Shown in pieces: positions 40,373 through 62,828 of a stretch of 64,000 nt of DNA (the first letter of the stretch is position 1; every line of letters begins with the position of its first letter). This DNA is from an uncultured delta proteobacterium (GTDB lineage: Bacteria > Myxococcota > UBA727 > VGSZ01): positions 272,616-336,615 of the forward strand of contig CAVZJB010000009.1 in the NCBI GenBank assembly GCA_963775425.1. The letters run 5' to 3'. A program made the translations under genes and the position numbers. The notes beneath the pieces are model-generated. The model was not told the DNA's origin, did no database searches, and saw nothing but the letters and a program-made list of their open reading frames with translations.

Positions 40373-40560
40373 CTGGGGGCCAATAGCGGCGATGACGGCG
40401 GGTGCCAACGGCGGGGGCGCGCGGCGCCGTGAGGTCGGAGGCAACACGAGCGCGCCCACGCTGTGACGGTAGCGCGCCCGAGCGGGCGTGGGCATTGACG
40501 GTCCGTCCGGCGGGAAGGAAACGGGCTGATGATCCTCTGCACGCCTTCCCCGGTCGGCCC

Positions 40561-41922
40561 ATGAGCAACACGTCGCTGCCCCCCACGTTCCTCGCCGAGA
40601 CCACCGCGCGCCTGCGGGCCGCCAACGAGCCCGTCACCCGTCGCTTCGTCGGCGAGAGCGCCTCACGCCAGCCGGTGCACACGGTCTACGGCGGGGCGCA
40701 GCTCTTCAAGAAGGACGCGGCGTGGAAGCTCGGCCGCGGCGCGCTCAAGGCGCTCGACGAGTACGCGCCCTCGGCGGACGTGTTCGCGCGCGCCGCGGGC
40801 ATCCGCGCCGACGTCGCCGGCGTCGTGTACGAGCGCGTGCGCGAGAAGCTCGTGCGCGAGCCCGTCGAGGACATGCGCATCGACTTCGAGGACGGCTACG
40901 GCAACCGCCCCGACGACGAAGAAGACGCCGAGGCGGTGCGCTGCGCGCACGAGGTGGCCGCCGGCATGAAGGATCCGCGCGCGCCGGGCAGCGGGCTGCC
41001 GCCGTTCATCGGCATTCGCATCAAGACCTTCTCGGACGAGCTGTTCGCGCGCGCGGTGCGCACCCTCGACCTTTTCGTGAGCGCGCTCGTCAAAGACACC
41101 GGCGGTAAGCTGCCGGACGGCTTCGTCATCACGCAGCCGAAGATCACCACGGCCGAGCACGTCGCCGTCCTCGCCGACGTCCTCGAAGCGCTGGAGGAGC
41201 GCCTCGGCCTGTCGTCGGGGGCGTTGCAGCTCGAGGTGATGATCGAGGCGACGCAGTCCATCCTGGACATCGACGGCAGGATCGCCCTGCCCAGGATCCT
41301 CGACGCCGCGCGCGGCCGCTGCGTGGCCGCGCACTTCGGGACCTACGACTACACCGCGTCCAACAACATCACCGCCGCGTACCAGTCCATGGAGCACGCG
41401 GTCTGCGACTTCGCCCGCACCTTCATGTTGCAGGCGTACGCGGGCACGGGCGTGTGGCTCAGCGACGGAGCCACCAACGTGATGCCGGTGCCGGTGCACC
41501 GCGCGGCCGACGGCCACGCGCTCACCGCCGCGCAGGTCGCCGAGAACGTGTCGGTGGTGCACGCGGCGTGGGCGCTGCACGTGCGCCACATCCGCCACTC
41601 GCTGGAAAACGGCTACTACCAGGGCTGGGACCTCCACCCCGCGCAGCTCCCCACGCGCTACGGCGCGCTCTACGCGTTCTTCCTCGAGGCGCTCCCCGCG
41701 GCGAGCGAGCGCCTGAAGAACTTCGTGCAGAAGGCCGCGCAGGCCACGCTCGTGGGCGACGTCTTCGACGACGCCGCCACGGGCCAGGGCCTGTTGAACT
41801 TCTTCCTGCGCGGCATCAACTGCGGCGCCCTCAAGGAGGACGAGGCCCTCGCCACGGGCCTCACCCTCGACGAGCTGCGCGGCCGCAGCTTCGTCAAGAT
41901 CTTGAAGAACCGTCGGGGTTGA
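40561..41922 (+). CDS. HpcH/CitE-like (aldolase / citrate-lyase beta superfamily) TIM-barrel protein
   Basis: Start MSNTSLPP. Motifs: RIDFEDGYG (compare the DLEDAV motif of CitE), FIGIRIKTF, LQLEVMIEATQSI, HFGTYDY. The assignment is at superfamily level only. Confidence 0.55.
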   Translation: MSNTSLPPTFLAETTARLRAANEPVTRRFVGESASRQPVHTVYGGAQLFKKDAAWKLGRGALKALDEYAPSADVFARAAGIRADVAGVVYERVREKLVREPVEDMRIDFEDGYGNRPDDEEDAEAVRCAHEVAAGMKDPRAPGSGLPPFIGIRIKTFSDELFARAVRTLDLFVSALVKDTGGKLPDGFVITQPKITTAEHVAVLADVLEALEERLGLSSGALQLEVMIEATQSILDIDGRIALPRILDAARGRCVAAHFGTYDYTASNNITAAYQSMEHAVCDFARTFMLQAYAGTGVWLSDGATNVMPVPVHRAADGHALTAAQVAENVSVVHAAWALHVRHIRHSLENGYYQGWDLHPAQLPTRYGALYAFFLEALPAASERLKNFVQKAAQATLVGDVFDDAATGQGLLNFFLRGINCGALKEDEALATGLTLDELRGRSFVKILKNRRG

Positions 41923-41932
41923 AGGCAGCGGC

Positions 41933-42943
41933 ATGCCCGTCGCCAATCCGGTCCAGTTCGCCGTGGTGCGCGAGGATCCCGTCGTCGAGCTCTCGCTCCT
42001 CGCGGACGTCCGGCGCGGCGCTTCGACCGCGGCGCTGCTCATCGCCTCGGGCGGCTGCACGGCGCTCACGGTCGCGGCGGCGCGCCCCGACGTGGCGCTC
42101 ACGCTGCTCGATGCGAACCCCGCCCAGCTCGCCCTCGTCGAGCGAAAGCGCGCCGCGCTCGCCGCGCACGCGCCGGGGTCGGCCGCGCGGCGGCGCACCT
42201 TCGGCGTCGACGCGGACGACGCGGCGTCCCTGTCGGGGTGCGGCAACTTCGAGTCGCTGTTTCGCGGGCTGCGCGCCGTGCTCGATGACCTGGTGATGCC
42301 GGCGGCCGAGCGGCGCGCGCTCCTCGCGGGCGACGGCGGCGCGGGCGCGCTCACCGGCAACAGGTACTGGCCGGTGGCGTTCGAGATGTTCTTCTCCGAC
42401 GCCATGCTCGAGGCCATGTTCGGGCCCGAGGCCACGCAGCACGCGGACAAGGGCTCGTACCCGGCGTACTTCCGCCGCGTCGTCGAGCGCGCCCTCGCCG
42501 GCGGCGCGGGGGGAGCGCCGGCGCGCGCGAACCCGTATCTTCACCACGTGTTGCTCGGCCACTACCTCGACGGCGCTCTGCCGGCGTTCCTGGAGCGCAT
42601 GACATGCGCGCAGGCGGAGGGCGCGCGCTTCAATCTCGTCGAGGGGAGCGTGACGCGGGGGCCGTCCTTCTCGGCGTTCGACCTCGTGTCGCTGTCGAAC
42701 CTCTTCGACTGGATGAGCGACGACGACGTGGCCGCGACGTGCGCGCGCCTCGCCGCCGAGTCCAAGCCCGGCGCCGTCGTGGTCTTGCGCCAGCTCAACA
42801 ACCGCGCTCCGGTCGAGCGCTTCTTCGGCGACGCGTTCCGCTTCGACGACGCACGCGCCGCGGCGCTCCTCGCCCGCGACCGCAGCATGTTCTACGAGCG
42901 CCTCGTGGTCGGCACGCGGGTCGCCGGCGGGGGTGGCGCATGA
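41933..42943 (+). CDS. BtaA-like (DUF3419-type) class I SAM-dependent enzyme
   Basis: Motifs: FAVVREDP, LLIASGGCTALT, LLDANPAQLALVE, YWPVAFEMFFSD, NPYLHHVLLGHY, SLSNLFDWMSDDD. It starts 10 nt after the upstream stop. Confidence 0.55.
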   Translation: MPVANPVQFAVVREDPVVELSLLADVRRGASTAALLIASGGCTALTVAAARPDVALTLLDANPAQLALVERKRAALAAHAPGSAARRRTFGVDADDAASLSGCGNFESLFRGLRAVLDDLVMPAAERRALLAGDGGAGALTGNRYWPVAFEMFFSDAMLEAMFGPEATQHADKGSYPAYFRRVVERALAGGAGGAPARANPYLHHVLLGHYLDGALPAFLERMTCAQAEGARFNLVEGSVTRGPSFSAFDLVSLSNLFDWMSDDDVAATCARLAAESKPGAVVVLRQLNNRAPVERFFGDAFRFDDARAAALLARDRSMFYERLVVGTRVAGGGGA

Positions 42944-43689
42944 GCGCGGCGGCGCCCCCGGAGAGCGCGGGTCGCTCGGCTGCCTCGCCGGAGCTCGTGC
43001 GGCTCATCGACGACGTGCTCGCCGACGTCGACTACGCCGAGAACCCCTACTTCACCGCGCTGCGCGACGGGAGCTTTTCGCGCGAGGACTTCCTCGAGAC
43101 GCAGCTCCAATTCCACGCGGCGGTGACGTTCTTCTCGCGGCCCATGGCGGCGCTGGCGGCCAAGATCCCGTCCGCGGAGCTGCGCGTGGAGATCGTGCGC
43201 AACGTGTGGGAGGAGCACGGCGAGGGCGATCCCGCGCGCATGCACGGCGCCACCTTCGTCGAGCTCCTGGCGCGCCTCACCGGCGGCGCCGCCGACGAGG
43301 TGCGGCGGGAGATCGAGCGCCGCCCCCTCTGGCCGGAGGTGCGCGCGTTCAACACCCTCCTCGCCGGCGTCTGCGTGCTCGACGAGTACCTCGTGGGCGT
43401 CGGCTGTATGGGCATCGTCGAGCGGATGTTCGCCGAGATCTCCGGCTGGATCGGAAACGCCATCGTCGCCCGCGGGTTCCTGCCCGCCGACCGGATGATC
43501 CACTACAGCCTTCACGAGTCCCTCGACGTCAAGCACGCGTCCGACTTCTTCGCCGTGCTCGACGCCGCCTGGGGCGCCGCCGACGAGCGCTACCGCATCG
43601 AGCAAGGCCTGCGCATGGGCGCCATCGCGTTCGACCAGCTCTACGCGCGCCTGTACCGCTGCCGCGACCGCCGCTGGGTGCGCCCGTGA
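42940..43689 (+). CDS. Heme-oxygenase-like diiron (iron-containing redox enzyme family) protein
   Basis: ATGA overlap with the upstream stop. Motifs: NPYFTALRDGSFSREDFLETQLQFHAAVTFF, VWEEHGEGDPARMHGATF, HESLDVKHA (helical E/H-rich ligand pattern). Confidence 0.6.
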   Translation: MSAAAPPESAGRSAASPELVRLIDDVLADVDYAENPYFTALRDGSFSREDFLETQLQFHAAVTFFSRPMAALAAKIPSAELRVEIVRNVWEEHGEGDPARMHGATFVELLARLTGGAADEVRREIERRPLWPEVRAFNTLLAGVCVLDEYLVGVGCMGIVERMFAEISGWIGNAIVARGFLPADRMIHYSLHESLDVKHASDFFAVLDAAWGAADERYRIEQGLRMGAIAFDQLYARLYRCRDRRWVRP

Positions 43690-44846
43690 CGCGCCCGCGT
43701 CGTCGACCGCGCGCGGGGCGCCCGCCCACGGGCCGGTGGGCCGCCGCGCCCGTCACCGCCCTCGTCCTCGCCGTCACCGGCGCGCTCGCGGGCTGCCCCG
43801 CGCCGGCGAGCGAGGATCCGTTCGAGCTCGTCATCGCCGCCAAGAAGGCGGCCGCCGACGTGCGCGCCGACGGCGCCCGCGTCGCCTACACCGACGGCCT
43901 GGAGGCGAGCAGCGACGGCCAGGGGGTCGGGGTCGACGTCGTCGTCGCCGAGCGCGGCGAGGAGATCCTGCGCGCGCCGGCCGACGTCGCCGTGCGCGGG
44001 ATGGCGCTCGGCAAGACCTCCGTGGCCACGCTCGAGCTCGCCGAGGCCGCCGCCGTCAATCAGCACGTGGTCATCCGTCCCCTCGACGGCGGCGACGCCA
44101 TCGATGTCCCTCGCACGGACGCGCCCCTCGCCCTCGCCGCCGTCGACGACGGCGCCGGCTACCTCTGGATCGAAGCGCGCCTCGACGGCACCGACGACAC
44201 CGGCGGCGGCGTCGACGGCCTCTATGTGCTCACGCTCGTCGAGGCCGGCGAGGACGGTGTGGTGACCAGGCGCACGCCCTTCGACGCCGGAGAGATCCGC
44301 GCCCCCGCCGCCGTCCTCGAGCTGTTCCCGCGCCCCTTCGGCGTGCTCGTCGCCGGTGACGACGTCTACTTCGGCTGGGACTCCGACCTCTGCCGCGGCG
44401 GCTCCGTGCTCTACCGCGTGAGCCGCGCCGACGGCCACGGCGTCGCGGAGTGGCGCGGGCGCGTCGCCGCCGTCGGCCCCGTCGACGGCACGACGTGCGA
44501 GTGCGACACCACCGTCGCCGACAACGTCACGGACCGCGGCCAGGCCGTCGCGCTGGACGCGGGGACACCGGTGGTGGTGGGCGGTGTCTTCGACTGCGCC
44601 TCCGTGAGCGCGGAGCGCGGCTTCGTGCGTGACGGCGAGGACAGCGCCGAGGTCGAAGACGCGCTCCGCTTCGCGGGCTTCTCGTCGAGCGGCGTCACGG
44701 CCACCACGCCCACGGGAGTGGTGAAGCTCGTCGGCGTCGGCGAGGGCGCCGTCGTGAACGCCCACTCGCGCGTGACCGGCCTCGCGGTGGACGGCGGCGA
44801 CGTGTTCTTCAGCCTCGAGGACGGCGTCTACCGCCTCACGCCGTGA
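43686..44846 (+). CDS. Probable lipoprotein, unknown function
   Basis: GTG start in a GTGA overlap. Signal peptide WAAAPVTALVLAVTGALAGC. The remainder is beta-rich. No family recognised. Confidence 0.55.
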   Translation: MTRPRRRPRAGRPPTGRWAAAPVTALVLAVTGALAGCPAPASEDPFELVIAAKKAAADVRADGARVAYTDGLEASSDGQGVGVDVVVAERGEEILRAPADVAVRGMALGKTSVATLELAEAAAVNQHVVIRPLDGGDAIDVPRTDAPLALAAVDDGAGYLWIEARLDGTDDTGGGVDGLYVLTLVEAGEDGVVTRRTPFDAGEIRAPAAVLELFPRPFGVLVAGDDVYFGWDSDLCRGGSVLYRVSRADGHGVAEWRGRVAAVGPVDGTTCECDTTVADNVTDRGQAVALDAGTPVVVGGVFDCASVSAERGFVRDGEDSAEVEDALRFAGFSSSGVTATTPTGVVKLVGVGEGAVVNAHSRVTGLAVDGGDVFFSLEDGVYRLTP

Positions 44847-44906
44847 CGCGGCGGTCCGGCCGCCGTTGACCGCGAGCGCCCGGCGCGGTCTCACTGCACC
44901 CAGGGC

Positions 44907-45707
44907 ATGCGCTTCTTCAAGATCACCCGCGAGATCCTGCCGCGCTGGCAGGAGAAGCTCGAGGCGCTCGAGCAACTGAGCGTCTATCCCCTCGGCGCCG
45001 ACGCCTTTCGCCTCACGCACGGCGCGGACTACTTCGCGTTCTTCGAGCGCATGGGCGAGGTCCACTACTACGCGATCGAGGAGGGCGGCGCGCTCGCCGC
45101 GGTCGCTTGCGGCGTGTTGCGGCCGGCGTCGGTGCGGGCGCCGCGTCGCTGGTACGCCGCGGACCTGAAGGTGCACCCGGCCTTTCGTGGGAGACACCTG
45201 CCGATCACGCTGCTCCGCCGCGCGTTCCTCCAAAACTGGCTCCGCTGCGGGCGCGGGTACGCGGTGGCGATGGACCCGTCCGACGGGCGCGTGCCTCCGG
45301 GGGTGCGGCTGATGGCGCACTTCAAGTGGATCCCGATGTCATTGATGGCGCTCGCCAAGATCGACGTCTACGCCGCCGACGAGCACGGGATGAAGCGCGC
45401 CGCGCCGCTCATCGCGCGTGGAGGCGTGCGGCCTCGATACGTATCGCTCGCAGGGGTCAAGGACCTCGTGCTCGAGAGCTCCAAGGCGCCGCTCGATCTT
45501 CTTCACGTGTCGTTTGCGCCCACCGGCGACGACCGGGTCTACGAGGCGCCGCAACGCGGGGCCACGCACATGTGGTGCGTGCCACGTGAGCACGCGCTGG
45601 CCGGCGCGCTCGCCGCCGAGGGCTTCACGCCCACGGCGAGCGCGACGCTCTTGCACCACCGGCTCGCGCGTATGGATTGGGCGACGCTCGAGACCTGCGA
45701 GATCTGA
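44907..45707 (+). CDS. Hypothetical protein, possibly GNAT-like acyltransferase
   Basis: 266-aa ORF. YAADLKVHPAFRGRHLPITLLRRAF resembles the GNAT acyl-CoA-binding motif. The assignment is weak. Confidence 0.45.
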   Translation: MRFFKITREILPRWQEKLEALEQLSVYPLGADAFRLTHGADYFAFFERMGEVHYYAIEEGGALAAVACGVLRPASVRAPRRWYAADLKVHPAFRGRHLPITLLRRAFLQNWLRCGRGYAVAMDPSDGRVPPGVRLMAHFKWIPMSLMALAKIDVYAADEHGMKRAAPLIARGGVRPRYVSLAGVKDLVLESSKAPLDLLHVSFAPTGDDRVYEAPQRGATHMWCVPREHALAGALAAEGFTPTASATLLHHRLARMDWATLETCEI

Positions 45708-45709
45708 AC

Positions 45710-47662
45710 GTGTGCGGCATCGTCGCCGTCCTGCGCCTCGGCGAGCGTCCGCTGCCCGGGGACGACGCGGTACGCGCGATGACCCGAGCCATCGCTCACC
45801 GCGGCCCCGACGGCGAAGGCTTCCATCGCGACGACGACGTCGCGCTCGGCGTGGTGCGGCTGGCGGTCGTCGACGTCGGGCACGGGCGGCAGCCGGCGCG
45901 CGGCTGCCGCGGCGCCGGGCCCGTGTCCGTCGTGAACGGCGAGCTCTACGAGCACCGCCCGCTGCGCGCGGAGCTCGCCGCGCGGCACGAGATCGTCGAC
46001 GCGTGCGACGCCACGCTGCTGCCGCATTTGTACGAGGACCACGGCGCCAACATGGTGCTGCACATGCACGGCATGTTCGCCTTTGCGCTGTGGGACCGGC
46101 GCGAGCGCACGCTGCTCCTCGGCCGCGACCGCCTCGGCATCAAACCGCTCTTCTTCGCCGTCACGCCCGACTTCCTCGTTGCTGCGTCGGAGGCAAAGGC
46201 GATCTTCGCCTCCGGCCTCGTCCAGCCGCGCATCGATCGCGACGCCGTCGACGACCTCTTCTCCCTGGGGTACCCGTGCCCGCCGCGCACGATGTTCGCC
46301 GGCGTCACTGCGGTGCCCCCGGGGCACACGGTGACGGCTCGCGCGGGCGGCGGCGCACAGCGAGGCCGCGTCGACGCCGCTCGCCGCTACTGGCGCGCGC
46401 CGCTGTCTCCGCCGGCGCACACCGGCCAACGAGGGTCGCCCGCGGGGTCGGCCGCCGACGTCCACGACGCCCTCGCCGCCGCCTTGCGCACGCACCTCGA
46501 CGCCGACGTCCCCGTGGCCACGTGGCTGTCCGGAGGGCTCGACTCGTCCGCGGTCTCGGCGCTCGCGCGCGAGGCCGCCGGCGCGCCGCTCCCCGCGTTC
46601 GCGCTCACGTTCCCGGGAGACCCCGAGGGGCTCGACGAGAGCGCACCCGCGCGCGCCGTCGCCCGCTTCCTCGGCGCGGACCTGGACGAGGTGCCCATGG
46701 GAGCTCCGGCGGCTTCGTTGCTCGAGCGCATGACGTGGCACCTCGAGCTCCCGCTCCTCGTCCCCGGCGCGCTCGGCGGCCTCCTGCTCTCCGAGCGGCA
46801 GCGCGCGCGAGGCTTCAAGGTCACGCTCACCGGCGACGGTGCCGATGAGGTGCTCGGCGGCTACGACGTGTTTCGCGCGAGCCGCGCGCGCCGGCTCCTC
46901 GGGGCGCGCGCGTTCTCCGCCGCCGTCGTCGCGGGCGACGCGCTCGGCCTCCTCTCGCCGCGCGGCATCGGTGCGTTCCTCGCGCAAAACGCCCGCGCGC
47001 CACGGACGGACATCGTCGCCCGCGCGTACGGCGGCGTGCGCCCACCCTGGCTCGAGCAGTGGGCGCTCCTCGACGTCGAGCGCGCGGCGCTCCTGTCGCC
47101 CGACGGCAGGCGCGTGCGCCCGATCGAAGAGGCGCCCGCGGGCTTCGCCGCTTTGGTGCGCGAGGACGCCGTCGCGCTCGATCCGCTCGACGCCGAGATC
47201 GCGCTGGAGCTGGAGACGCGCCTGCCCGCGTGGATCCTGGTCATCGGTGATCGCTCATCGATGGCCCACGGGGTCGAGGCCCGCTTGCCGTTCCTCGACG
47301 ACGACGTCGTGCGCACGCTCCTCGCCGTCCGGCCGGCGCTGAAGATGCGCGGGATGCGCGAGAAGGCCGTGCTGCGCGACGCCGTCGCGGGGCTGCTGCC
47401 GCGCGCCATCGTGCGGCGCAGGAAGCAGCCGTTCATGACGCCGATCGCGCCGTGGTTCTTCCCGCCGGGAGCTACGCCGCCCGCCCTGACGCGCGCGCGG
47501 CTCGAGGACGCCGGGCTGTTCGACGCCGCCGTCGTCGCGCGGCTCCTCACGCGTCTGCACACCTCGCGCCCCGGGACGCTCGAGCGCGTCCGGCTGGAGA
47601 TGGTGCTGATGCTCGTCCTCGGGACGCAGCTCCTGCACGCGTCTTTCGTGGCCAGGGCTTAG
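45710..47662 (+). CDS. Asparagine synthetase B-like glutamine amidotransferase / adenylating enzyme
   Basis: The GTG-TGC start gives the N-terminal nucleophile (M)CGIVAV. Motifs: GELYEH, RDRLGIKPLFF, SGGLDSS (PP-loop), LTGDGADEVLGGY. It starts 2 nt after the upstream stop. Confidence 0.85.
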   Translation: MCGIVAVLRLGERPLPGDDAVRAMTRAIAHRGPDGEGFHRDDDVALGVVRLAVVDVGHGRQPARGCRGAGPVSVVNGELYEHRPLRAELAARHEIVDACDATLLPHLYEDHGANMVLHMHGMFAFALWDRRERTLLLGRDRLGIKPLFFAVTPDFLVAASEAKAIFASGLVQPRIDRDAVDDLFSLGYPCPPRTMFAGVTAVPPGHTVTARAGGGAQRGRVDAARRYWRAPLSPPAHTGQRGSPAGSAADVHDALAAALRTHLDADVPVATWLSGGLDSSAVSALAREAAGAPLPAFALTFPGDPEGLDESAPARAVARFLGADLDEVPMGAPAASLLERMTWHLELPLLVPGALGGLLLSERQRARGFKVTLTGDGADEVLGGYDVFRASRARRLLGARAFSAAVVAGDALGLLSPRGIGAFLAQNARAPRTDIVARAYGGVRPPWLEQWALLDVERAALLSPDGRRVRPIEEAPAGFAALVREDAVALDPLDAEIALELETRLPAWILVIGDRSSMAHGVEARLPFLDDDVVRTLLAVRPALKMRGMREKAVLRDAVAGLLPRAIVRRRKQPFMTPIAPWFFPPGATPPALTRARLEDAGLFDAAVVARLLTRLHTSRPGTLERVRLEMVLMLVLGTQLLHASFVARA

Positions 47663-47828
47663 GGCCCCCGAATGAACAACTCGATCGCCCTCGCGGCCGA
47701 TCCATCGCCGCTGGCTTCGTTGCTCGTCGGTCACGTGGCGACGGCCACGCTCCCTCCTCGCGCCTCGCCATCGGCGCGCCTCGACCGCGATCATCGACCG
47801 ACTTGTTCATTCGAGGGCCCTTAGCCCT
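47654..47828. repeat. 175-bp element bounded by 34-bp imperfect inverted repeats, located exactly between two convergent stop codons
   Basis: Left arm 47654-47687: agggcttagggcccccgaatgaacaactcgatcg. The reverse complement of 47795-47828 is agggctaagggccctcgaatgaacaagtcggtcg (30/34 identical). The asnB-like stop (47660-62) lies inside the left arm. The NRPS stop (47829-31) abuts the right arm. Confidence 0.6.
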
Positions 47829-50800
47829 CTAGATCGCGTCGGCCGCGCCGACGTCGGCCTGCGGGGCGGCGGCGAGGGAGCGCGGACGCGCGGGGCGCTT
47901 GTCGACGACCTCGTCGATGAGGCCCGTGATGCACGTGGCCATGCGCTCGATGTTCTCGCTCCGAAACAGCTCGAGGTGCGAGCCCTTCACCGTGACGACG
48001 TCGATGCGACCCTTGACCCAGCGGCGCCAGCCGTTGGTGGGATCGTCCATGCGCGTGGCCGGCCAGCGGAAGGGATGCTCGGCGACAAAGAGCAGGAGCG
48101 GCGCCGTCTCTCCGTTCTGTTTGGGCATGTACGCGAGCTGGGCCTGCGTGAGGATGGCCCAGATCTGCTTCATGCGATCTTCGCGCTCACGGTCGGCGCC
48201 GTCGACGGCGGGCGCGAGCAGCTCGCCGAGGCCGAGCTTGAAGAGCAAGCGGCGGCGCACGTTGTCGATGCGATCCTTCACGTAGTTGAAGCGGCCCAAG
48301 GCGTCACGCCTGCGCAGCTCCTCGACATGCGCGAGCGCGCGCTCCATGCGCGGAAGCTTCTCGGGATAGCCGGGCGCGAAGGCGTCGAACGCGACGATGG
48401 CGCCGACGTTCTTCCCGCGCCGGCGCAGCCGGTGCGCGAGCTCGTAGGCGACCATGGCCCCGAAGCTGTAGCCGCCGACGACGAGCTGCTGCCCCGACAG
48501 CCCGCGCGCGTCGAGCTCGCGCTCGTAGGCCGCGGCGATCTCCTCGACCGACTCGCGTGGCAGGTCTTCGCCGTCGGCGCCGATGGCGGTGAAGGCGTAG
48601 ACGGGTTGATCGGGCCCGAGCCGCTGCGCGAGCTCGCGAAAGATGAACACCTGGCCGCCCGCGCCGGACACGATGAGCAGCGGCGGGCGCGTCCCGTGCG
48701 CGTTCAACACGACGAGGTGGCTCTGCGGCTCGGACGTCGCGCGCTCGCCGTCGCCGAGGCTCTGCGCGAGCGCGGCGATGGTGGGCTTCGCCAGGATGCG
48801 CGACAGCGGGACGTTGATGCCCAGCTCCTTCTTCAGCCGCGACACCACCACGACCGCGAGCAGCGAGTGGCCGCCCATGTCGTCGAAGAAGTCGTCGTGA
48901 ACACCCACCGGCGCGCGCAAGACGTCGCTCCACAGGGCGACGAGCTTCTCCTCGAGCGGGGTGCGCGGTGGGGACAGCGCGCGCCGCTCGAGGACGAGCG
49001 CCGGATCAGGGAGCGCCGCGCGGTCGAGCTTGCCGTTGGAGGTGACCGGCAGGCGGTCGAGCCGCACCAGGGCCGAAGGCACCATGAAGTCCGGCAGCGC
49101 CGCAGCCACCGCCGCCTTCAACGACGGCGCGTCGAAGGGCTGCGCCGCATGGAGCGGCACGACGTACGCCACCACGGCCTTCGCGCCGGAGGCGTCGGGG
49201 CGCGCGACGCACACGACGTCGCGCACGCCGGGCTGCTTGCGCAGCACGGCTTCGATCTCGCCGAGCTCGACGCGGAAGCCGCGCACCTTCACCTGGAAGT
49301 CGGCGCGCCCGAGGAACTCCATGGTGCCGTCGTCCCAGAAGCGCGCGAGGTCGCCCGTCTTGTAGATGCGCTCGCCCGGGAGGAACGGATCGGGGAGGAA
49401 CCGCTCGGCGGTGAGCTCCTCGCGGTTGAGGTAGCCGTCGGCGAGGCAGAGGCCGCCGATGTAGAGGTCGCCGGCGATGCCGGTGGGCGCCGGGCGCATG
49501 TGGCGATCGAGGATGTAGTAGCGGGCGTTGTCGATGGGACGGCCGTAGGGGATGGAGCGCCACGACGGGTCTACGTGGCCGATGCGGTGGAAGTTCGACC
49601 AGATGGCGGCCTCGGTGGCGCCGCCGAACGACACGGGTTCCACACCCTCGAACACCTCGCGCAGGTGGTCGGGCAGCTTGACCGGGATCCAGTCGCCGGA
49701 CATGAGCGCGAGCCGCAGCGTCGACGACGGCGCGCGCGCCGGAAAGAACGGCGCGAGCCGCGCCAGCGCCGGCGGCGCGGAGTCCCAGATGGTGATGCCG
49801 GGCGCGGTGAGCTTCTTCACCAGGAGCTCCGGCTCGCGCAGCGTCTCCACCGAAGCGATCTCGACGACGGCGCCGGCGCCGAGCGCGCCGAAGACGTCGT
49901 AGACGGACAGGTCGAAGCTCGGGGACGTGACGAACAAGAGCTTGTCGCGCGGGCCGACGCTGAAGGTGCGGTTCACCCACTGCAGCGTGTTCGTCACCGC
50001 GCGGTGCGTGAGCACCACGCCCTTGGGCCTGCCGGTGCTGCCCGACGTGTAGATGGCGTAGCTCACGTCCCTCGAGGCGGCGACGCGCGCGGGCCGGGTG
50101 TCGGGAGCGCCCTGCACGTCCGCGCCGTCGACGCCCAGGATGGGGATGCCCGGCGGCGGCGCGCCGTCGCCGTGGCCCCACGGCAGCGACGACGACGTCA
50201 CCACCGCCACCGCTCGCGCGTCTTCGACCATGAAGCGCGCGCGCTCTTCGGGGTAGCCCGGGTCCACGGGCACATATGCCGCACCGGACTTGGCGATGCC
50301 GATCATCGTGGTGACGAGGTCGAAGTTGCGGTCGAGCAGGAACGCCACGTATTGGCCGGGCTTCACCCCGCGGGCGCGCAGCGCGTGGGCGAGGCGGTTG
50401 GCGCGCCGCTCCACCTCGGCGAAGGTGAGCGTCTCTCCCTCGAATTCCAGGGCGACGTCGTCAGGCCGCGCGTCCACCTGCTCCTCGAAGAGCGTGTGGA
50501 TGAGGATCTCGTCTGAAAACGGCGCGGCCGTGTCGTTCCAGCCGAAGACCTGCCGCTTGCGGGTCTCGTCGTCGAGGAGGTCGACGCGCGCGAGGGGCTT
50601 TTCGGGATCCGCCGCGACCTGCGCGCACACCGCGGAGATCTGCTCCACCAGCGCGCGCACGCGGGGCGTGTCGACCGCGCCTTCGTCGACGACGAGCGAC
50701 GCCTGTCCGCCGCTCAGGCGCAGCGCCAGGACCGCGCCCGGCGGGAGGGCCTCGCCGTCGTCGAGCAGGACGGCCACGCACGACAGCGCGCTCGTCTGGA

Positions 50801-52202
50801 GCGCGCGGCTGGGGGAGAGCACAGGGGTACGCGCGACGAGGTCGACGAGGTAGCCGCCGCGGCGGCGGAGCTCGTCGAGGTCCTTTCGCACCGCGCGCAC
50901 CAGCTCCGCGAAGCCGCGCCCCGCGTCCAGGCCGACGAACAACGGGACGGTGGGCGCCAACAAGGCCGAGGCGGCTTCGAAGCGCTTGCGCACGGGGCCG
51001 TCTACGAGGGCGACGCACAGCTCGTCGCGGTCGCACAGCGTGGCCATGGCGAAGGAGAACGCGGCGGTGGCTGCGGCCTCGATGTCATCGGCGAAGCGCG
51101 AGCGCAGCTCGGGCAGGGGGAGCGAGTGCACCGACGTTTGTCCCGGCGGCCCCGCCGCCGACAAGAACGGCACCGCCGGCGACTCCGCGCGCGCGAGGCG
51201 CTTGACGAAGAACGGCTCGGCCTCGGCGATCTCGCGGGTGATCGCCGCGCGGCCCTCGCGTCCGGGATCGACGATCTGTCCACCGGGCTTGAGTCCCAGG
51301 TAGTGCAGCGCCTCCTCGACGGAGATCTCGACTCCGCTCAGGAGCGACGTCCGCTCCACGCGCAGCGCCCCCTGGGCGCACGCCACCACGAAGGAGCGGG
51401 CGTCGGCCTCGAGGACGGTGCCCGGGCCCCCGCCCGCGCCGGACACCGACGCCTCACGCACGACCACCGCGCGCTCCCCCGCCGACGTCTTGTGCACGAG
51501 CTTGGCGAGGGCGAAGCGGTTGATGTACGGGCCCCAGTCGCAGGCGCGCACGAGCCGGTCGAGCTCGGCGGCCGTCTGGCTCCAGTCGAGAGTGGCCAGG
51601 GCCGCGGGGCGATCGTGACGCGAGAAGATCAGCCGCTCGCCGCCGGGGTTCGTCCCCTTCGGCTGGGGGATGCCCGGCGGCGCGCCGTGCTCGAGCTTCT
51701 CGACGAGAGACTTGAAGGCGTCGAGCGCGAGCGCGGCGTTCTTGATGTTGAGGGAGACGGAGCTCTCGCGCTCCTCGATGTCGACGTCGCGGCGCTCGAG
51801 GATGTCGCCGGTGTCGATGCCGTCGGCGAGGCGATGCCACACCACGGCGTGCGTGCGCTCGCCGCGCAGGAGCGCCCACGCCGAGCCGTGAATGCCCGCG
51901 TAGCGGGGCAGCGGTCCGTCGTGGAAATTGACGGCGTCGATGCGCGCCTTGGTGAAGTGCTCGGCCTTGAGGATGGCGGGGTACGTGATGGACAAGAGGA
52001 CGTCGATGTCGCCGGCGGCCATGAGCTCACCGATGCGCGCGCGCCCGTAGACCGGCACGTCCTTGCCCCGCGCCCACTCGGCGAGGGCCGGGTTGAGCGT
52101 GACGAGGCCGGCGAGGGCGTGCCCCCGCTCCAGGAGGAGCTCGCCGCACGAGACGGCGAGCGGCTCTTCTCCGAGGACGAGGCAGCGAAGGTGCGCGGGC
52201 AC
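47829..52202 (-). CDS. Single-module NRPS: formyltransferase domain, C-domain remnant, adenylation domain, PCP, thioesterase
   Basis: Fmt-like N-terminus: NFHDGPLPRYAGIHGSAW...GIDTGDIL (His codon 51921-23). A C-terminal half of a condensation fold follows, with no HHxxxDG. A-domain motifs: YAIYTSGSTGRPKGV, FDLSVYD, MSGDWIP, FGGATEAAIW, YKTGDLAR, GRADFQVKVRGFRVELGEIE, NGKLDR. PCP: FFDDMGGHSL (Ser codon 48864-66). TE: GYSFGA (Ser codon 48465-67). Confidence 0.9.
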   Translation of the reverse strand: MPAHLRCLVLGEEPLAVSCGELLLERGHALAGLVTLNPALAEWARGKDVPVYGRARIGELMAAGDIDVLLSITYPAILKAEHFTKARIDAVNFHDGPLPRYAGIHGSAWALLRGERTHAVVWHRLADGIDTGDILERRDVDIEERESSVSLNIKNAALALDAFKSLVEKLEHGAPPGIPQPKGTNPGGERLIFSRHDRPAALATLDWSQTAAELDRLVRACDWGPYINRFALAKLVHKTSAGERAVVVREASVSGAGGGPGTVLEADARSFVVACAQGALRVERTSLLSGVEISVEEALHYLGLKPGGQIVDPGREGRAAITREIAEAEPFFVKRLARAESPAVPFLSAAGPPGQTSVHSLPLPELRSRFADDIEAAATAAFSFAMATLCDRDELCVALVDGPVRKRFEAASALLAPTVPLFVGLDAGRGFAELVRAVRKDLDELRRRGGYLVDLVARTPVLSPSRALQTSALSCVAVLLDDGEALPPGAVLALRLSGGQASLVVDEGAVDTPRVRALVEQISAVCAQVAADPEKPLARVDLLDDETRKRQVFGWNDTAAPFSDEILIHTLFEEQVDARPDDVALEFEGETLTFAEVERRANRLAHALRARGVKPGQYVAFLLDRNFDLVTTMIGIAKSGAAYVPVDPGYPEERARFMVEDARAVAVVTSSSLPWGHGDGAPPPGIPILGVDGADVQGAPDTRPARVAASRDVSYAIYTSGSTGRPKGVVLTHRAVTNTLQWVNRTFSVGPRDKLLFVTSPSFDLSVYDVFGALGAGAVVEIASVETLREPELLVKKLTAPGITIWDSAPPALARLAPFFPARAPSSTLRLALMSGDWIPVKLPDHLREVFEGVEPVSFGGATEAAIWSNFHRIGHVDPSWRSIPYGRPIDNARYYILDRHMRPAPTGIAGDLYIGGLCLADGYLNREELTAERFLPDPFLPGERIYKTGDLARFWDDGTMEFLGRADFQVKVRGFRVELGEIEAVLRKQPGVRDVVCVARPDASGAKAVVAYVVPLHAAQPFDAPSLKAAVAAALPDFMVPSALVRLDRLPVTSNGKLDRAALPDPALVLERRALSPPRTPLEEKLVALWSDVLRAPVGVHDDFFDDMGGHSLLAVVVVSRLKKELGINVPLSRILAKPTIAALAQSLGDGERATSEPQSHLVVLNAHGTRPPLLIVSGAGGQVFIFRELAQRLGPDQPVYAFTAIGADGEDLPRESVEEIAAAYERELDARGLSGQQLVVGGYSFGAMVAYELAHRLRRRGKNVGAIVAFDAFAPGYPEKLPRMERALAHVEELRRRDALGRFNYVKDRIDNVRRRLLFKLGLGELLAPAVDGADREREDRMKQIWAILTQAQLAYMPKQNGETAPLLLFVAEHPFRWPATRMDDPTNGWRRWVKGRIDVVTVKGSHLELFRSENIERMATCITGLIDEVVDKRPARPRSLAAAPQADVGAADAI

Positions 52203-52237
52203 GTCGTCGGATTATCACGACCTGCGGCGCCCGCGCA

Positions 52238-54094
52238 TTATCGGTAGCCACGTGCCTGCAGATCGAACATCTCGGCGTAACGACCGCGCTTGCTCATGAG
52301 CGTGTCGTGCGTGCCGCGCTCGACGACCCGGCCCCTCTCGAGCACGACAATCTGATCTGCCGTGCGCACCGTGGAGAACCTGTGCGAAATCACGATGCCG
52401 ATTCGCCCGCGCAACAGACCGCGCAGCTCGGCGAAGATTTCTGCCTCCGCGGCCGGGTCGAGGTTCGCCGTGGGCTCGTCGAGGACCCACACGTCGGCGT
52501 CGCGGTAGATGAGGCGTGCGAGCGCGAGGCGTTGCCATTGGCCCCCGCTCAAGTCGTGCCCTCCCTCGAACAAGCGGCCGACGACGGACCCCAGTCCGTG
52601 CCCGATCTCGTCGACGATGCCGTCCGCGCGCGCGGACGCGAGCGCGCGTTCCGCCCGCTCCCGGTCGAACGGCAAGGAGATCCGGCCGAAGCGCAAGACG
52701 TCCTGCACCTCGAGCTCGTAGGCGCCGTAGTCTTGGAACAGCACCCCGATCCTGTCGCGCAGGCGCTCGGGGTCGGCGGCGCGCGCGTCGACGGCGACGT
52801 CGACGCCGTCGACGGGGCCCGAGAAGACGATCCGCCCCTCGTCGGGATCGAAGAAGCGGCACAGGAGCTTCACCAGGGTGCTCTTGCCGGCGCCGTTTTC
52901 GCCCACCAGCGCGAGGATCTCGCCGGCGCGCACCTCGAGGTCGACGCCGGCGAGCGCGCCCCGCTCCTCGTCGTGGCCCGGGTACCGGAACGACACGTTC
53001 TCGAGCGCCACCCGCGTGATGCGCTCGGGGAGGGCCTTCGCGACGGCCGGGGCGCGAACGGTGGGCTCGATGGCGAGGAAGCTGAAGTAGTCGTCGATGA
53101 ACTGCGCGTGCTCGTCGACGGTGACCAGCGAGCCGAGCGTGGCGCCGAGGTTGCTCGTCAGGGCGGTGAAGGCGCCGAAGATCGCGGCGACGTCGCCGAT
53201 GCTGAGGGTGCCGCGGGTGCCGGCGCCGGCGATGAAGATGTAGGCGACCAACAAGAGCGAGGCGGAGCCGGCGCCGCCGAGGAGGTCGAGGACGTTGGCG
53301 TCGCGGTAGAGCCGCCGCTTTTGCTCGAGCCGATCGAGCGACATGGCCTTGGCCCGGTCGACCACGTGCTGCGCCAGGCCGAACGCGCGCACGTCCTTGG
53401 CGAAGTGCGGCTCCGACGCCACCTGCACCATGTAGTCGTGCTCGCGCTCGCGGCGGGTGGTGCGCCAGAAGAGCTCGTAGAAGCGGCGGTTGGTGCGGAG
53501 CTTCATCAACGCCACCGGCAGCACGGAGAGCACGCCGAGGGGGACGAGCCGCGCGTCCAGGACGAACAGCGCGGAGCACAGGGTGACGAGCGTGATCGTC
53601 GACGAGAAGATGTGGATGAGCGTGAGCGTGAGGTTGTACGGGCGCCAGCCCACGTCGGCGCGGGCGCGCTGCAGCCTGTCGTGCCACGCGGGGTCGTCGA
53701 GGAGCGCGAGGTCGGCGGTGGCGACGTGCAGGAGGAACTTCTTGTGGGCGGACATCCAGACGCGGTCGGAGAACACGTCGTGGACGCGCCCGGTGAACGC
53801 CTGCAGCGATTGATTGAGGACGGCGAGGCCGCCGAGCGCGAGCACCGGGAAGAGCACCCGGTGATCCCGCCACGACGACGGGTGCGCCGCGATGCCGTCG
53901 ATGAGCCTGCCCGTGGCGAGGAGCGTCAGCGGCGTCAGCACGGCGCTCACCACGGTGAGCGCGAGGACGGTGCCCATCTGCCGCGGCGCCGCCTCCCAGG
54001 CGAGCGCCAGCGTGGCGCGCACGTTCCGCCAGATGCGCGCGGGTCGCGGCAGCATCTTGCGCACGGGCGGCGTCTCCTGGGCAGGCGCGGTCAT
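52238..54094 (-). CDS. ABC transporter, fused permease/ATPase (exporter type)
   Basis: Six-TM N-terminal half. Walker A GENGAGKST, signature LSGGQWQR, Walker B VWVLDEPTANLD. Its ATG overlaps the upstream stop (TGATG). Confidence 0.85.
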   Translation of the reverse strand: MTAPAQETPPVRKMLPRPARIWRNVRATLALAWEAAPRQMGTVLALTVVSAVLTPLTLLATGRLIDGIAAHPSSWRDHRVLFPVLALGGLAVLNQSLQAFTGRVHDVFSDRVWMSAHKKFLLHVATADLALLDDPAWHDRLQRARADVGWRPYNLTLTLIHIFSSTITLVTLCSALFVLDARLVPLGVLSVLPVALMKLRTNRRFYELFWRTTRREREHDYMVQVASEPHFAKDVRAFGLAQHVVDRAKAMSLDRLEQKRRLYRDANVLDLLGGAGSASLLLVAYIFIAGAGTRGTLSIGDVAAIFGAFTALTSNLGATLGSLVTVDEHAQFIDDYFSFLAIEPTVRAPAVAKALPERITRVALENVSFRYPGHDEERGALAGVDLEVRAGEILALVGENGAGKSTLVKLLCRFFDPDEGRIVFSGPVDGVDVAVDARAADPERLRDRIGVLFQDYGAYELEVQDVLRFGRISLPFDRERAERALASARADGIVDEIGHGLGSVVGRLFEGGHDLSGGQWQRLALARLIYRDADVWVLDEPTANLDPAAEAEIFAELRGLLRGRIGIVISHRFSTVRTADQIVVLERGRVVERGTHDTLMSKRGRYAEMFDLQARGYR

Positions 54095-55056
54095 CAATAT
54101 CCCGCGGCGACGTCGACCACGCCGAGGAGCGGCTCCCGCGCGGCGTAGCGGCGGACGTTGTCGCGCACGCGCTCCTTCAGGAGCGGCACCGCCATCTCGG
54201 GCGTGTTCCCGACGTGCGGCGTGATGACGCAGCGCTCGCTGCGCCACAGGGGGTGATCCTCCGGGAGCGGCTCGGGATCGGTGACGTCGAGCGCGGCGCC
54301 GCCGATGACGCCGCGCGCGAGCGCGTCGACGAGGGCGCCGGTGTCGACGAGGGCGCCGCGCGCGACGTTCACGAGCCAGGCGTGCCGGGGCATGCACGCG
54401 AGCTCCGCGGCGCCGATCATCCCCCGCGTCTCCGGCGTCAGCGCCGCGGCGAGGAACACGACGTCCGCCCCGGCGAACGCCTCGCGCCGCGCTTCGAACG
54501 TCACCGTCCGCACCAGACCGTCGCCGCCGGCGAACGGGACGCTCCGGCGCCTGACGACGGTGAGCGCGCAGCGAAACGGCGCCAGCAGCGCGACCAGGCT
54601 CCGGGCGATGCCGCCGGCGCCGACGATGACGACCTTCCCGCCGAGGAGCGAGAGCCCATCCGCGGGCCCGCCGTTCGGCCGCACCCAGGAGCGCGCGAGC
54701 GCGCGTGCCTTCAGGTTGCGCAGCCCGGCGAGCGCCAGGGCGAGCGCGTGCTCGGCGACGGGGGCGGCGTACACGCCCTGTCCCGCGGTGAAGCGGTGGT
54801 TGTCGTCGAGGACGCTGAGGAACGGCTCGATGCCCGCCCACGGCAACTGCACCCAGCGGATGTTGTCGTGCAGATCGAGGAGGGCGCGCAGGTCGGCGGC
54901 CCCCGTCGAGCTCGCCCAGACGAGACCCTCGGCGTCCTCGGGGGAAGCGAGCGCGGCGCCGCCTTCGACGACGGCGTCCTCGAGGAACGGGCGCACGCCC
55001 TTCGGCGCCACGCAGACCTTCAGCGCGCTCACGGCGCCGATGATGCACGGCGCCAC
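54094..55056 (-). CDS. D-isomer-specific 2-hydroxyacid dehydrogenase family protein
   Basis: Motifs: GKVVIVGAGGIARSL (NAD site), LVNVARGALVD, LDVTDPEPLP, ITPHVG. Confidence 0.8.
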   Translation of the reverse strand: MAPCIIGAVSALKVCVAPKGVRPFLEDAVVEGGAALASPEDAEGLVWASSTGAADLRALLDLHDNIRWVQLPWAGIEPFLSVLDDNHRFTAGQGVYAAPVAEHALALALAGLRNLKARALARSWVRPNGGPADGLSLLGGKVVIVGAGGIARSLVALLAPFRCALTVVRRRSVPFAGGDGLVRTVTFEARREAFAGADVVFLAAALTPETRGMIGAAELACMPRHAWLVNVARGALVDTGALVDALARGVIGGAALDVTDPEPLPEDHPLWRSERCVITPHVGNTPEMAVPLLKERVRDNVRRYAAREPLLGVVDVAAGY

Positions 55057-55138
55057 CGGCCGCGGGAAGCGCGGAAGCGAAAGCGCGCCCCACGGGGGGC
55101 GCGCGCAGATCAGCGACCGGAGGGAGCGGCCGCGCAGA

Positions 55139-57331: not shown

Positions 57332-58552
57332 TCAGTCCGCCTGCGGCGGTTCCTCTTCGCTCGCCCGCCGCGTGCGCACCCAGGCGTCGGAGCGCTTCCA
57401 GGGACGGGCGACCACGAGCTTCCACAAGACGTACGCCGGCGCCGTCAGCAGAGCGAAGAGGCCGGCGACGCCGGTGCCGGAGAACGCCACGCCGCGCAGG
57501 ACGTAGGCCGCGAGCGACAGCGTCGACAGCGCCCACAGCGGCCACGCCGGCGACGGCCCGCCGGCGACGAAGACGTGGGCGCCCTCGACGGCGAGGCCGG
57601 CGACGACGACGAGCGCGGGGTACGAGATCGGCGGGACCATGAGGTCGCAGGCGAGATTGAAGAGCAGCAGCGAGCGCTGCGCCACCGCCGCCTTCAGCAC
57701 GCGCGGGAGGAGCGTGCGCATCAGGCCGAAGCGGCCGCCCTCCCAGCGGCGCCGCTGCGACAGCGCGGTCCCGGCGCTCACCGGCGCGTCGGAGCGGATC
57801 CACGTCTCCGGAGCGAACGCCACGCGGACGCCGTTCATCCCGAGCCGCACGCCGTACTCGACGTCCTCGACGACGCCGTACACCTCGTGCGGCACGCGCT
57901 CGAGGCACTCCCGTGAAAAGGCCATGCCCGTGCCGCGCAGCCCGACCGAGAGGCCGAGCCGCTCGCGCCCGAGCGAGCGCACGCCGTTGATCATCGCCAT
58001 CGCGATGGCCTGCAGGCGCGGCCGCCAGCCCGCGCCCGGGTTCTTCACGGCGTTTTCGACCTGCATCGCGAGGTCGCCGGCGACCACGCGGGCGCCCACC
58101 GCGCGCCAGAGGTTGCCGGCGACGATGGTGTCGGCGTCGACGACGATGACGCCCTCGACGCGCTCGTCGCCCTCGAGCGCCAGCGCGTGCGCGAACGCGG
58201 CCTCGAGCGCGTAGCCCTTGCCGCGGCGCACGTCGTCCCTGCGCTCGAGCACGCGGGCGCCGGCCTCGCGGGCGAGGGTGGCGGTGTCGTCGGTGCAGTT
58301 GTCGGCGACGACGAGGACGATCTTCTTGTCCGCGGGCGCGTCCGCGGCGAGCAGGCTCTTCACCGTGGCCGCGATGCCGTCCTTCTCGTTGTGCGCCGGC
58401 ACCACGCAGACGAGGCGCGGCGTGTCTGCGTCGGCGGGGGCCGGCGGAGGCCGCTTGCGCCACGACAGGAGCGTGAGGAACCCGAGGTACAGCCACACCG
58501 GCAACACGGCGACGGCGAGCACCCACGAGAGGACCTCGAGCGCCGCCGGCAT
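57332..58552 (-). CDS. Membrane glycosyltransferase family 2
   Basis: Start MPAALEVLSWVLAVAVLPVWLYLGF. Motifs: VVPAHNE, VVADNCTDDT, VVDADT, QRRRWEGG (QxxRW-type). C-terminal TM helices. Confidence 0.8.
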   Translation of the reverse strand: MPAALEVLSWVLAVAVLPVWLYLGFLTLLSWRKRPPPAPADADTPRLVCVVPAHNEKDGIAATVKSLLAADAPADKKIVLVVADNCTDDTATLAREAGARVLERRDDVRRGKGYALEAAFAHALALEGDERVEGVIVVDADTIVAGNLWRAVGARVVAGDLAMQVENAVKNPGAGWRPRLQAIAMAMINGVRSLGRERLGLSVGLRGTGMAFSRECLERVPHEVYGVVEDVEYGVRLGMNGVRVAFAPETWIRSDAPVSAGTALSQRRRWEGGRFGLMRTLLPRVLKAAVAQRSLLLFNLACDLMVPPISYPALVVVAGLAVEGAHVFVAGGPSPAWPLWALSTLSLAAYVLRGVAFSGTGVAGLFALLTAPAYVLWKLVVARPWKRSDAWVRTRRASEEEPPQAD

Positions 58553-58599
58553 CACCGCACGTTCTCGTCGAGGCCGTGTGCGCGCCGCATGGCGGGAGC

Positions 58600-61700: not shown

Positions 61701-61729
61701 GGCGCTCTCCAAGAGGGGTGAACGAGGAC

Positions 61730-61770
61730 GAAGCCGCCGCACGGATCACCCGGGTCCGTGCGGCGGCTTC
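61730..61770 (-). terminator. Strong hairpin between fliC and fliD (terminator/attenuator candidate)
   Basis: Perfect 15-bp stem: gaagccgccgcacgg (61730-44) pairs with ccgtgcggcggcttc (61756-70), with an 11-nt loop. It starts 9 nt after the fliC stop. No clear U-tract. Confidence 0.55.
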
Positions 61771-61778
61771 AGGAGCGC

Positions 61779-62801: not shown

Positions 62802-62828
62802 TCATCACCGCGGCGCGGACCCGCGGGG

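Follow-up and report, generated by a model that had tools for sequence, protein, structure and literature searches.

A one-module nonribosomal peptide synthetase with a formyltransferase/half-condensation front end and a fused thioesterase in an uncultured member of the Myxococcota

What would a nonribosomal peptide synthetase (NRPS) make if it held a single module with a formyltransferase-like domain at one end and a thioesterase (TE) at the other, and which of its neighbors would work with it? The question is raised by a stretch of 64,000 nucleotides (the window, here always meant in its full length) from contig CAVZJB010000009.1 of assembly GCA_963775425.1 (positions 272,616 to 336,615), which comes from an uncultured delta proteobacterium classified within the Myxococcota. 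An earlier note on this DNA had described positions 44907 to 55056 as one orphan locus, in which the NRPS was accompanied on its own strand by an ATP-binding cassette (ABC) exporter and a 2-hydroxyacid dehydrogenase (HADH), and on a convergent arm by tailoring genes. The reading that we favor, and to which we give slightly better than even credence, is that the HADH, ABC, and NRPS genes form a three-gene unit around a stand-alone loader of the OzmO/PtxE/CongA type, equipped with a TE, that would formylate, release, and export one small cysteine-like residue.

Domain anatomy of the NRPS

The domain order claimed for the NRPS, namely, a formyltransferase-like domain, half a condensation (C) domain, an adenylation (A) domain, a peptidyl carrier protein (PCP), and a TE, was borne out by Pfam matches of the protein itself and of a homolog. 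The N-terminal domain matched both Formyl_trans_N (residues 60 to 155, 1.4e-11) and Formyl_trans_C (203 to 297, 1.1e-8), followed along the protein by AMP-binding (572 to 925, 3e-76), AMP-binding_C (982 to 1058), PP-binding, and Thioesterase (Table 1). The C-terminal domain is a Pfam Thioesterase and not an NAD_binding_4 reductase, and its matches in the PDB are terminal TEs of NRPSs and polyketide synthases (PKSs). The catalytic NFH...D residues proposed earlier were found as the triad N92/H94/D130 within the Formyl_trans_N fold, with a His-to-Asp spacing of 36 residues, which is also that of Fmt and ArnA. Both this triad, in an alignment of 23 relatives, and the motif N[FY]HDGPLPxYAG were invariant or nearly so. 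When residues 1 to 330 were compared with the PDB, Fmt, WbkC, and ArnA were retrieved at an E value of 1e-15 and the formylation (F) domain of LgrA at 5e-3.

Pfam Condensation had no match in the window NRPS, and the HHxxxD motif occurs nowhere along the protein, but in a homolog the region equivalent to residues ~310 to 560 matched positions 191 to 456 of the 456 in the Condensation profile, in keeping with the half-C fold devoid of HHxxxDG that had been proposed. An AlphaFold2 model of residues 1 to 570, built from the 23-sequence alignment, had a predicted local distance difference test (pLDDT) score of 91.6 and a predicted template modeling (pTM) score of 0.88. In Foldseek, Fmt and ArnA were the best-matching folds, and the first ~300 residues of the model superposed on the whole of Fmt and of the ArnA formyltransferase domain, with template modeling (TM) scores of 0.82 to 0.87 of the target. 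On the strength of this superposition and of the Condensation match in the homolog, the chimeric anatomy is confirmed: where a C domain would have its catalytic N-terminal lobe, there is a complete formyltransferase of two subdomains, and the C-terminal lobe of the C domain is retained. A cyclization domain is lacking, as had been stated, and the domain content supports the prediction of a one-residue, N-formylating, TE-terminated module.

A large family that includes the OzmO/PtxE/CongA loaders

A HMMER search with residues 1 to 560 found 1043 cluster representatives (clustered at 50% identity) at E<1e-30, most of which span all 560 residues. The signature peptide marked over 600 loci in the species genomes of GTDB and another set of over 600 in metagenomes, distributed over many phyla; the metagenome loci were retrieved with the subclade alignment A2, single-protein patterns having given none. 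Within this family, the N-terminal region precedes A-PCP, A-PCP with a TE, an A domain with an inserted monooxygenase, or a multimodular arrangement. The inserted domain is luciferase-like in some members with the order Fmt-C-lobe-A(Gly) (P0038 and P0028). In the multimodular type, the TE lies about 10 kb past the formyltransferase start, as seen at many loci (e.g., L007, L009, L015, L019, and L059) that span Burkholderiales, Planctomycetota, Acidimicrobiia, and Myxococcota, which suggests a recurrent multimodular line of ~3600 aa that starts with formyl-glycine.

A profile search with the N terminus also recovered ~17 actinomycete (mostly Streptomyces) F-A-PCP proteins of 1119 to 1193 aa, at E values of 1e-118 to 1e-142. 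In BLASTP, residues 7 to 1146 of the window NRPS were collinear with residues 8 to 1118 of P0259, a protein of Streptomyces sp. KO7888, at 35% identity. P0259 is encoded between a 4857-aa PKS and a 400-aa PP-loop protein with the motif SGGKDS, and beyond P0259 and the PP-loop gene come an 879-aa ketosynthase-acyl carrier protein and then a 6084-aa hybrid synthase. The order ptxF-ptxE-ptxD-ptxC-ptxB and the sizes published for phthoxazolin/oxazolomycin agree with this neighborhood (PMC5764310), and P0259 is, as judged from its sequence and gene order, the predicted PtxE/OzmO ortholog. The collinearity at 35% identity therefore indicates that what has been called the F domain in OzmO, PtxE, and CongA already holds the relic of the C-domain lobe. 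The anatomy thus belongs to a loader type that is already known, if not in structural terms, and it differs from the short LgrA F domain.

The lack of precedent put forward in the earlier note has to be divided accordingly. It does not apply to the architecture, which is the normal F-domain region of the OzmO/PtxE/CongA loaders, whereas the fusion to a TE and the cysteine-like code are indeed unusual. No characterized Fmt-A-PCP-TE enzyme was found in the literature, and literature searches for formylcysteine, or for a formyltransferase with the C-terminal subdomain, returned nothing relevant.

A TE-bearing subclade with a cysteine-like pocket

The motifs FDLSVYD, MSGDWIP, and GGATEAAIW, from which a cysteine-type A domain had been proposed, are all found in the A domain. 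The Stachelhaus positions were read by aligning the landmarks FDxS, SGD, GGATE, and GKxDR. The code given before, DLYNLSLIWK, had to be corrected to DLYDLSFIWK, but the resemblance stands, with 8 of 10 positions equal to those of the cysteine code DLYN[LM]SLIWK and differences at N278D and L322F.

Most of the family is of another type. Codes beginning with DIL and reading DILQ[LM]G[MY]IWK (glycine type) were found at 126 of the 145 family loci whose code could be read, in agreement with a role as formyl-glycine loaders, while DLY or DLF codes occurred at only seven loci (L002, L003, L005, L089, L092, L093, and L096; L089 and L094 are one contig). These seven and the window NRPS make up a subclade of full-length Fmt-X-A-PCP-TE proteins, 44 to 49% identical over ~1430 residues, with the codes DLYDMS[LF]IWK or DLFDMSFIWK and, in L096, DLYNMSLIWK, the canonical cysteine code. 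Every full-length member of the subclade keeps the fused TE. The subclade appears to have exchanged glycine for a cysteine-like substrate and to have gained a release domain of its own.

The predicted pocket is cysteine-like with an Asn/Asp exchange at position 278, and cysteine is the most likely substrate, with serine, 2,3-diaminopropionate, or another small residue as possible alternatives. Among these, 2,3-diaminopropionate, which had been prompted by Asp278, was downgraded, as the ortholog L096 has Asn278 in a canonical cysteine code. The Asp278 variants DLYD[LM]S[LFM]IW had no match in the literature. At two loci (L089:6663-8352 and L004:6519-8259), the subclade NRPS gene was found ~1.6 kb downstream of a pair of genes coding for MbnB/TglH/ChrH and DUF2063 (HvfC-like) proteins, with an AraC regulator nearby.

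The same-strand operon

The ABC exporter and HADH genes reported on the NRPS strand are both present and closely spaced. The HADH stop overlaps the ABC start by 1 nt, and 35 nt separate the ABC and NRPS genes. The same HADH-ABC-NRPS order is repeated in L022, a metagenome-assembled genome (MAG) of Deltaproteobacteria, at 58%, 56%, and 44% identity, respectively. Because of the overlap, the short gap, and the recurrence in L022, the HADH and ABC genes appear to be tightly coupled to the NRPS gene. The best NCBIfam match of the ABC protein was MsbA, with 247 bits (under the cut-off of 602) over aligned residues 73 to 614. Between the HADH gene and the gene for a MauG-like protein, there is a hairpin with a 9-bp GC stem and a 4-nt loop followed by TTTCGCTT, which probably bounds the HADH-ABC-NRPS unit on its upstream side; its tail has four T residues, and the consensus terminator scan requires at least five.

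Proposed mechanism and envelope decoration as an alternative

In the three-gene scheme, the A domain would adenylate a residue that is small and polar (by its code most probably L-cysteine or a near isostere) and load it onto the PCP. By homology to LgrA and to the OzmO-type F domains, the N92/H94/D130 site would use N10-formyl-tetrahydrofolate to formylate the alpha-amine of the PCP-bound residue, while the C-lobe is probably not a catalyst but a platform that docks on the acceptor PCP and on the A domain. We infer loading and N-formylation from the biochemistry of LgrA and from the OzmO-type pathways (PMC4504003, PMC5764310). The serine of the TE (GYSFG) would then free the N-formyl-aminoacyl group, either hydrolytically or by passing it to an acceptor, and the ABC protein would export or flip the product, while HADH may supply a precursor or a reaction partner, the latter being a hydroxy or keto acid. 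The product is likely an N-formyl-cysteine-like acid that is released or transferred and then exported, although none can be named with confidence.

Several points weigh against this scheme. HADH and ABC genes accompany the NRPS in just 2 of ~11 subclade loci and may be accessory. The substrate is predicted from just 10 residues, and most members of the subclade have Asp at position 278, where characterized cysteine domains have Asn. Finally, other members have membrane glycan- or lipid-modifying neighbors, which suggests that the product of the TE may not be a free acid.

Such neighbors are the core of the best-surviving rival, in which the N-formyl-aminoacyl group would be transferred, by the TE or by a neighboring membrane transferase, to a surface glycan or lipid, and the MsbA-like ABC protein would flip the product. 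The models for this are Dlt (teichoic acid D-alanylation) and AlmEFG (lipid A glycylation), in which an adenylating enzyme and a carrier deliver one amino acid via a membrane transferase. We see envelope decoration as possible, if on the improbable side. A gene of the Wzy_C family (O-antigen ligase/polymerase) lies directly upstream of the subclade NRPS in L002, L092, and L093, a gene of the MBOAT family, to which DltB belongs, lies directly downstream in L003, and one of the PMT_2 membrane glycosyltransferase family, to which ArnT belongs, is found upstream in L001. There is also a fusion of AMP-binding and Acyl_transf_3 in L002 and L092, and there are family 2 glycosyltransferase (GT2) genes in L088, in L005, and in the window. 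The top match of the ABC protein to MsbA would fit as well, as would the presence of the Pks13 TE, an acyl transferase onto trehalose, among the PDB matches of the TE domain. However, GT2 genes are common in general, and the association with these neighbors is a plain tally; L089 and L004 are without any such neighbor (only MbnB/DUF2063 and DoxX), the GT2 gene of the window is cut off from the operon by another gene and by the terminator-like hairpin, the MsbA match falls far under its cut-off, and no acceptor can be named.

A more speculative proposal, which we put forward as doubtful, is that the subclade is an unrecognized envelope-modification or low-molecular-weight-thiol system, in which the single module would make N-formyl-cysteinyl-S-PCP and pass the residue to a glycan, lipid, or hydroxy-acid acceptor for export by the ABC protein. 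Besides Dlt and AlmEFG, the analogs proposed for it are mycothiol and bacillithiol, which are N-acyl-cysteine thiols, with formyl as the N-cap in the present case.

The convergent arm as a separate cassette

The AsnB and GNAT-like genes described on the convergent arm are present, but the tailoring role ascribed to them was not supported, as the cassette to which they belong recurs without a formylating NRPS. The AsnB gene starts at GTG 45710 (M-C-G-I, with Cys2 as the nucleophile), 2 nt past the GNAT-like stop, a start assigned because Cys must be residue 2. With glutamine amidotransferase (GATase) and PP-loop Asn_synthase domains and a TIGR01536 score of 374.5 bits (versus a cut-off of 267.1), the product is a predicted intact amidotransferase. 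For the GNAT-like protein, which is 260 to 270 aa long across the cassette copies, 66 homologs were found. The cassette is composed of the DUF3419, heme-oxygenase-like di-iron (HDO), and GNAT-like genes, and copies 56 to 72% identical to that of the window were found in L082, L083/84, L085, and L086/87. It is spread over at least five contigs, with at least four distinct gene contexts besides the window. None of these copies is accompanied by a formylating NRPS, and their surroundings all differ. AsnB is optional, with a 60% identical AsnB after the cassette in L082. Conversely, the cassette was found beside the NRPS in 0 of the 160 loci that encode relatives of the NRPS N terminus. In the window, the gene for the 386-aa lipoprotein is inserted between the HDO and GNAT-like genes. 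As the cassette lives elsewhere without the NRPS and the 160 NRPS loci are without the cassette, the two arms are best read as separate units, which would lie tail to tail by chance or be loosely associated at most.

Two further observations concern the proteins of the cassette. DUF3419 (BtaA-like) is a possible aminocarboxypropyl or methyl transferase. In the PDB sequence search, neither the GNAT-like nor the DUF3419 protein had a match, and the lipoprotein had only a weak one, to a designed propeller.

The opposite view, that 44907 to 55056 is a single cluster in which AsnB amidates and the GNAT-like protein acylates, building together with DUF3419 and HDO a bursatellin-like formylated metabolite, seems unlikely to us. 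It can appeal to the adjacency of the arms, with convergent NRPS and AsnB ends 166 nt apart, to the intact amidotransferase, and to a stand-alone NRPS-type A-domain gene ~8 kb from the cassette of L082. In the mollusc bur-ox system, in addition, a monomodular Fmt-NRPS works alongside oxidases and an aminocarboxypropyl transferase (PMC11869996). Apart from the distribution of the cassette just described, what argues against a single cluster is that the arms are on opposite strands, that the lipoprotein gene interrupts the cassette in the window, and that the mollusc aminocarboxypropyl transferase is isonocardicin-synthase-like and not DUF3419 (PMC11869996). In the convergent gap (47500 to 48000), the consensus scan gave no promoter or terminator.

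Remaining alternatives

Very improbable, in our judgment, is that the NRPS is a loader acting in trans for a PKS or NRPS encoded elsewhere, with a TE that is only an editing or proofreading hydrolase. It is homologous to stand-alone F-A-PCP loaders that do act in trans, and editing TEs at PKS termini are documented, according to PMC5707447. However, neither a second NRPS or PKS gene nor a PP-loop cyclodehydratase of the OzmP/CongE type (SGGKDS) was found in the 64-kb window, none of these adjoins the subclade orthologs, and the TE is retained by all full-length members of the subclade.

We give just as little weight to a Fmt-like domain that does not formylate the amino acid, being structural, using another one-carbon or acyl donor, or acting on the phosphopantetheine thiol (HypX formylates CoA). 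The loop HDGPLPxYAG of the window family differs from that of Fmt, HxSLLPxxRG. In vitro work failed to demonstrate formylation by the mollusc enzyme FmtATR (PMC11869996). On the other side, the N/H/D triad is conserved with canonical spacing, and the same type of domain opens pathways with a formyl-derived oxazole carbon, those of phthoxazolin, oxazolomycin, and conglobatin (PMC5764310, PMC4504003).

Gene map and other features of the window

The gene map around the locus (Table 1) was drawn from third-position G+C content (GC3), the window having a G+C content of ~72%; in relative loci of lower G+C, genes were instead taken by greedy picking of open reading frames (ORFs). The NRPS starts at GTG 52202, with an in-frame TGA/TAA just 5' of it. 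ORF 52215-53873 was rejected as the ABC gene, since it is in a noncoding frame by GC3 and has no Pfam match. No riboswitch or other RNA family was found in the window with Rfam.

Table 1. Features in and around the NRPS locus (window positions unless a locus is given)
Feature	Position	Strand	Evidence or remark
DUF3419 (BtaA-like) gene	41933-42943	+	Pfam
Haem_oxygenas_2 gene (HDO)	42997-43689	+	Pfam
Lipoprotein gene, 386 aa	43686-44846	+	
GNAT-like protein, 266 aa	44907-45707	+	Weak Pfam Acetyltransf_1 match
AsnB-type glutamine-hydrolyzing amidotransferase	45710-47662	+	Pfam GATase_7 + Asn_synthase; TIGR01536
Monomodular NRPS, 1457 aa (Fmt-like, C-lobe relic, A, PCP, TE)	47829-52202	-	ORF, Pfam
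NRPS: thioesterase, residues 1174-1422	47937-48683	-	PF00975 4e-24; GYSFG serine motif at residue 1244
NRPS: PCP, residues 1085-1147	48762-48950	-	PP-binding 9e-15; GGHSL site at residue 1110
NRPS: adenylation domain	49008-50507	-	Pfam AMP-binding, AMP-binding_C; Stachelhaus code DLYDLSFIWK
NRPS: relic condensation C-terminal lobe, residues ~301-565	50508-51302	-	Without HHxxxD
NRPS: formyltransferase domain, N (catalytic) + C (OB-like) subdomains, residues ~1-300	51303-52202	-	Signature NFHDGPLPRYAG
Exporter-type ABC half-transporter, 618 aa	52238-54094	-	GC3 frame, Pfam ABC_tran
D-isomer-specific 2-hydroxyacid dehydrogenase (HADH), 320 aa	54094-55056	-	Pfam 2-Hacid_dh_C 3e-43; NCBIfam
Terminator-like hairpin	55075-55104	-	Read directly from sequence
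MauG-like di-heme/propeller protein, 641 aa	55139-57064	-	
GT2 glycosyltransferase	57332-58555	-	
FliD + two flagellin genes	60363-63708	-	
Cassette copies	L082:8350-12680; L083:8217-10822; L085:8257-10801; L086:4019-6473; window 41933-47662	+ (window)	

Upstream of the cassette, a purine/urate catabolism block (33803 to 41922) codes for a HIUase, an allantoicase-OHCU decarboxylase fusion, an amidohydrolase, and a membrane urate oxidase (Urate_ox_N) that bears a C-terminal CarboxypepD_reg domain, followed by SCO1. After SCO1 comes a DUF6986 protein with weak similarity to malate synthase/HpcH, the gene of which ends 10 nt before the DUF3419 gene; it could be a glyoxylate-condensing enzyme. On the other side of the locus, the MauG-like protein is secreted and combines an N-terminal beta-propeller with a C-terminal di-heme CCP/MauG-like part. 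It had weak, sub-threshold NCBIfam matches to the hydrazine synthase beta/gamma subunits and to MbnH.

The FliD and flagellin genes stand near a locus whose nearest NRPS relatives are in Myxococcota MAGs, and the Myxococcota are not usually regarded as flagellated. A flagellin-glycosylation island was considered but set aside, as no nucleotide-sugar genes are present in the window. Farther away, a pair of SbcC-like (1160 aa) and SbcD-like genes (24057 to 28973, minus strand) has a G+C content of 79 to 81%, which gives rise to a long spurious ORF on the opposite strand. Not linked to the NRPS are a 599-aa homolog of calpain-family cysteine proteases (9320 to 11119, minus strand) and a 622-aa AMP-binding enzyme without a carrier domain (12436 to 14304, minus strand).

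Implications

Should the product be N-formyl-cysteine, either free or conjugated, it would add a small thiol to the known metabolites or a new type of surface modification. The window NRPS would also be a compact catalyst with four activities (activation, tethering, formylation, and release) in one protein, useful for engineering. Beyond this locus, the chimera of formyltransferase and half C domain heads a very large NRPS family, with more than 1000 clusters from many phyla, most of which are unstudied. For genome mining, the lesson would be that an apparent 10-kb cluster can be two unrelated units lying tail to tail.

Comparison with known systems

The initiation module of LgrA (linear gramicidin) is, to our knowledge, the sole formylating NRPS module with solved structures. 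Its transfer of formyl to the PCP-bound amino acid has been shown biochemically, as cited in PMC4504003. LgrA resembles the window NRPS in having a domain of the formyltransferase fold ahead of A-PCP. However, its A domain starts at about chain residue 204 to 206, which leaves only ~200 residues for the F domain and no room for Formyl_trans_C and the C-lobe, while the window NRPS has ~565 residues before its A domain. LgrA, moreover, continues into further modules without a TE, whereas the window NRPS is a single module with one. As for Fmt and the formyltransferase domain of ArnA, they act on tRNA and on a nucleotide sugar, respectively, while the window domain is fused to an NRPS and its acceptor is presumably a carrier-bound amino acid.

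The likeness to Dlt and AlmEFG comes from gene context only, through the MBOAT, Wzy_C, or PMT_2 genes that flank several subclade orthologs. Those systems have no formylation and are made of separate proteins, and the window operon is without such a membrane transferase.

The mollusc FmtATR of the bursatellin/oxazinin system (bur-ox) is a monomodular Fmt-A-T-R enzyme that makes N-formyl-tyrosinol, and the closest homologs of the bur-ox genes are bacterial, according to the authors (PMC11869996). It shares with the window NRPS the single module, the N-terminal formylation domain, and a single N-formyl amino-acid derivative as its product, and from its size alone (~180 kDa) we infer that it also has the C-lobe. 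It differs in being animal-encoded and tyrosine-specific and in releasing its product as an alcohol through a reductase, against the TE and cysteine-like code found here. As a concept, a formylating NRPS of one module that yields one modified amino acid has its nearest precedent in FmtATR.

In anatomy, the nearest systems are the OzmO/PtxE/CongA loaders, in which Fmt (N and C subdomains), the C-lobe relic, A, and PCP are collinear with those of the window NRPS, with the same signature NFHDGPLP and no HHxxxD, and which would share its presumed chemistry, the formylation of an aminoacyl-S-PCP. The window NRPS departs from them in its A code, cysteine-like and not glycine, and in the TE fused at its end. 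It is also without the adjacent PP-loop cyclodehydratase (OzmP/CongE/PtxD) or PKS, both of which P0259 has, and its operon partners are instead HADH and an ABC exporter.

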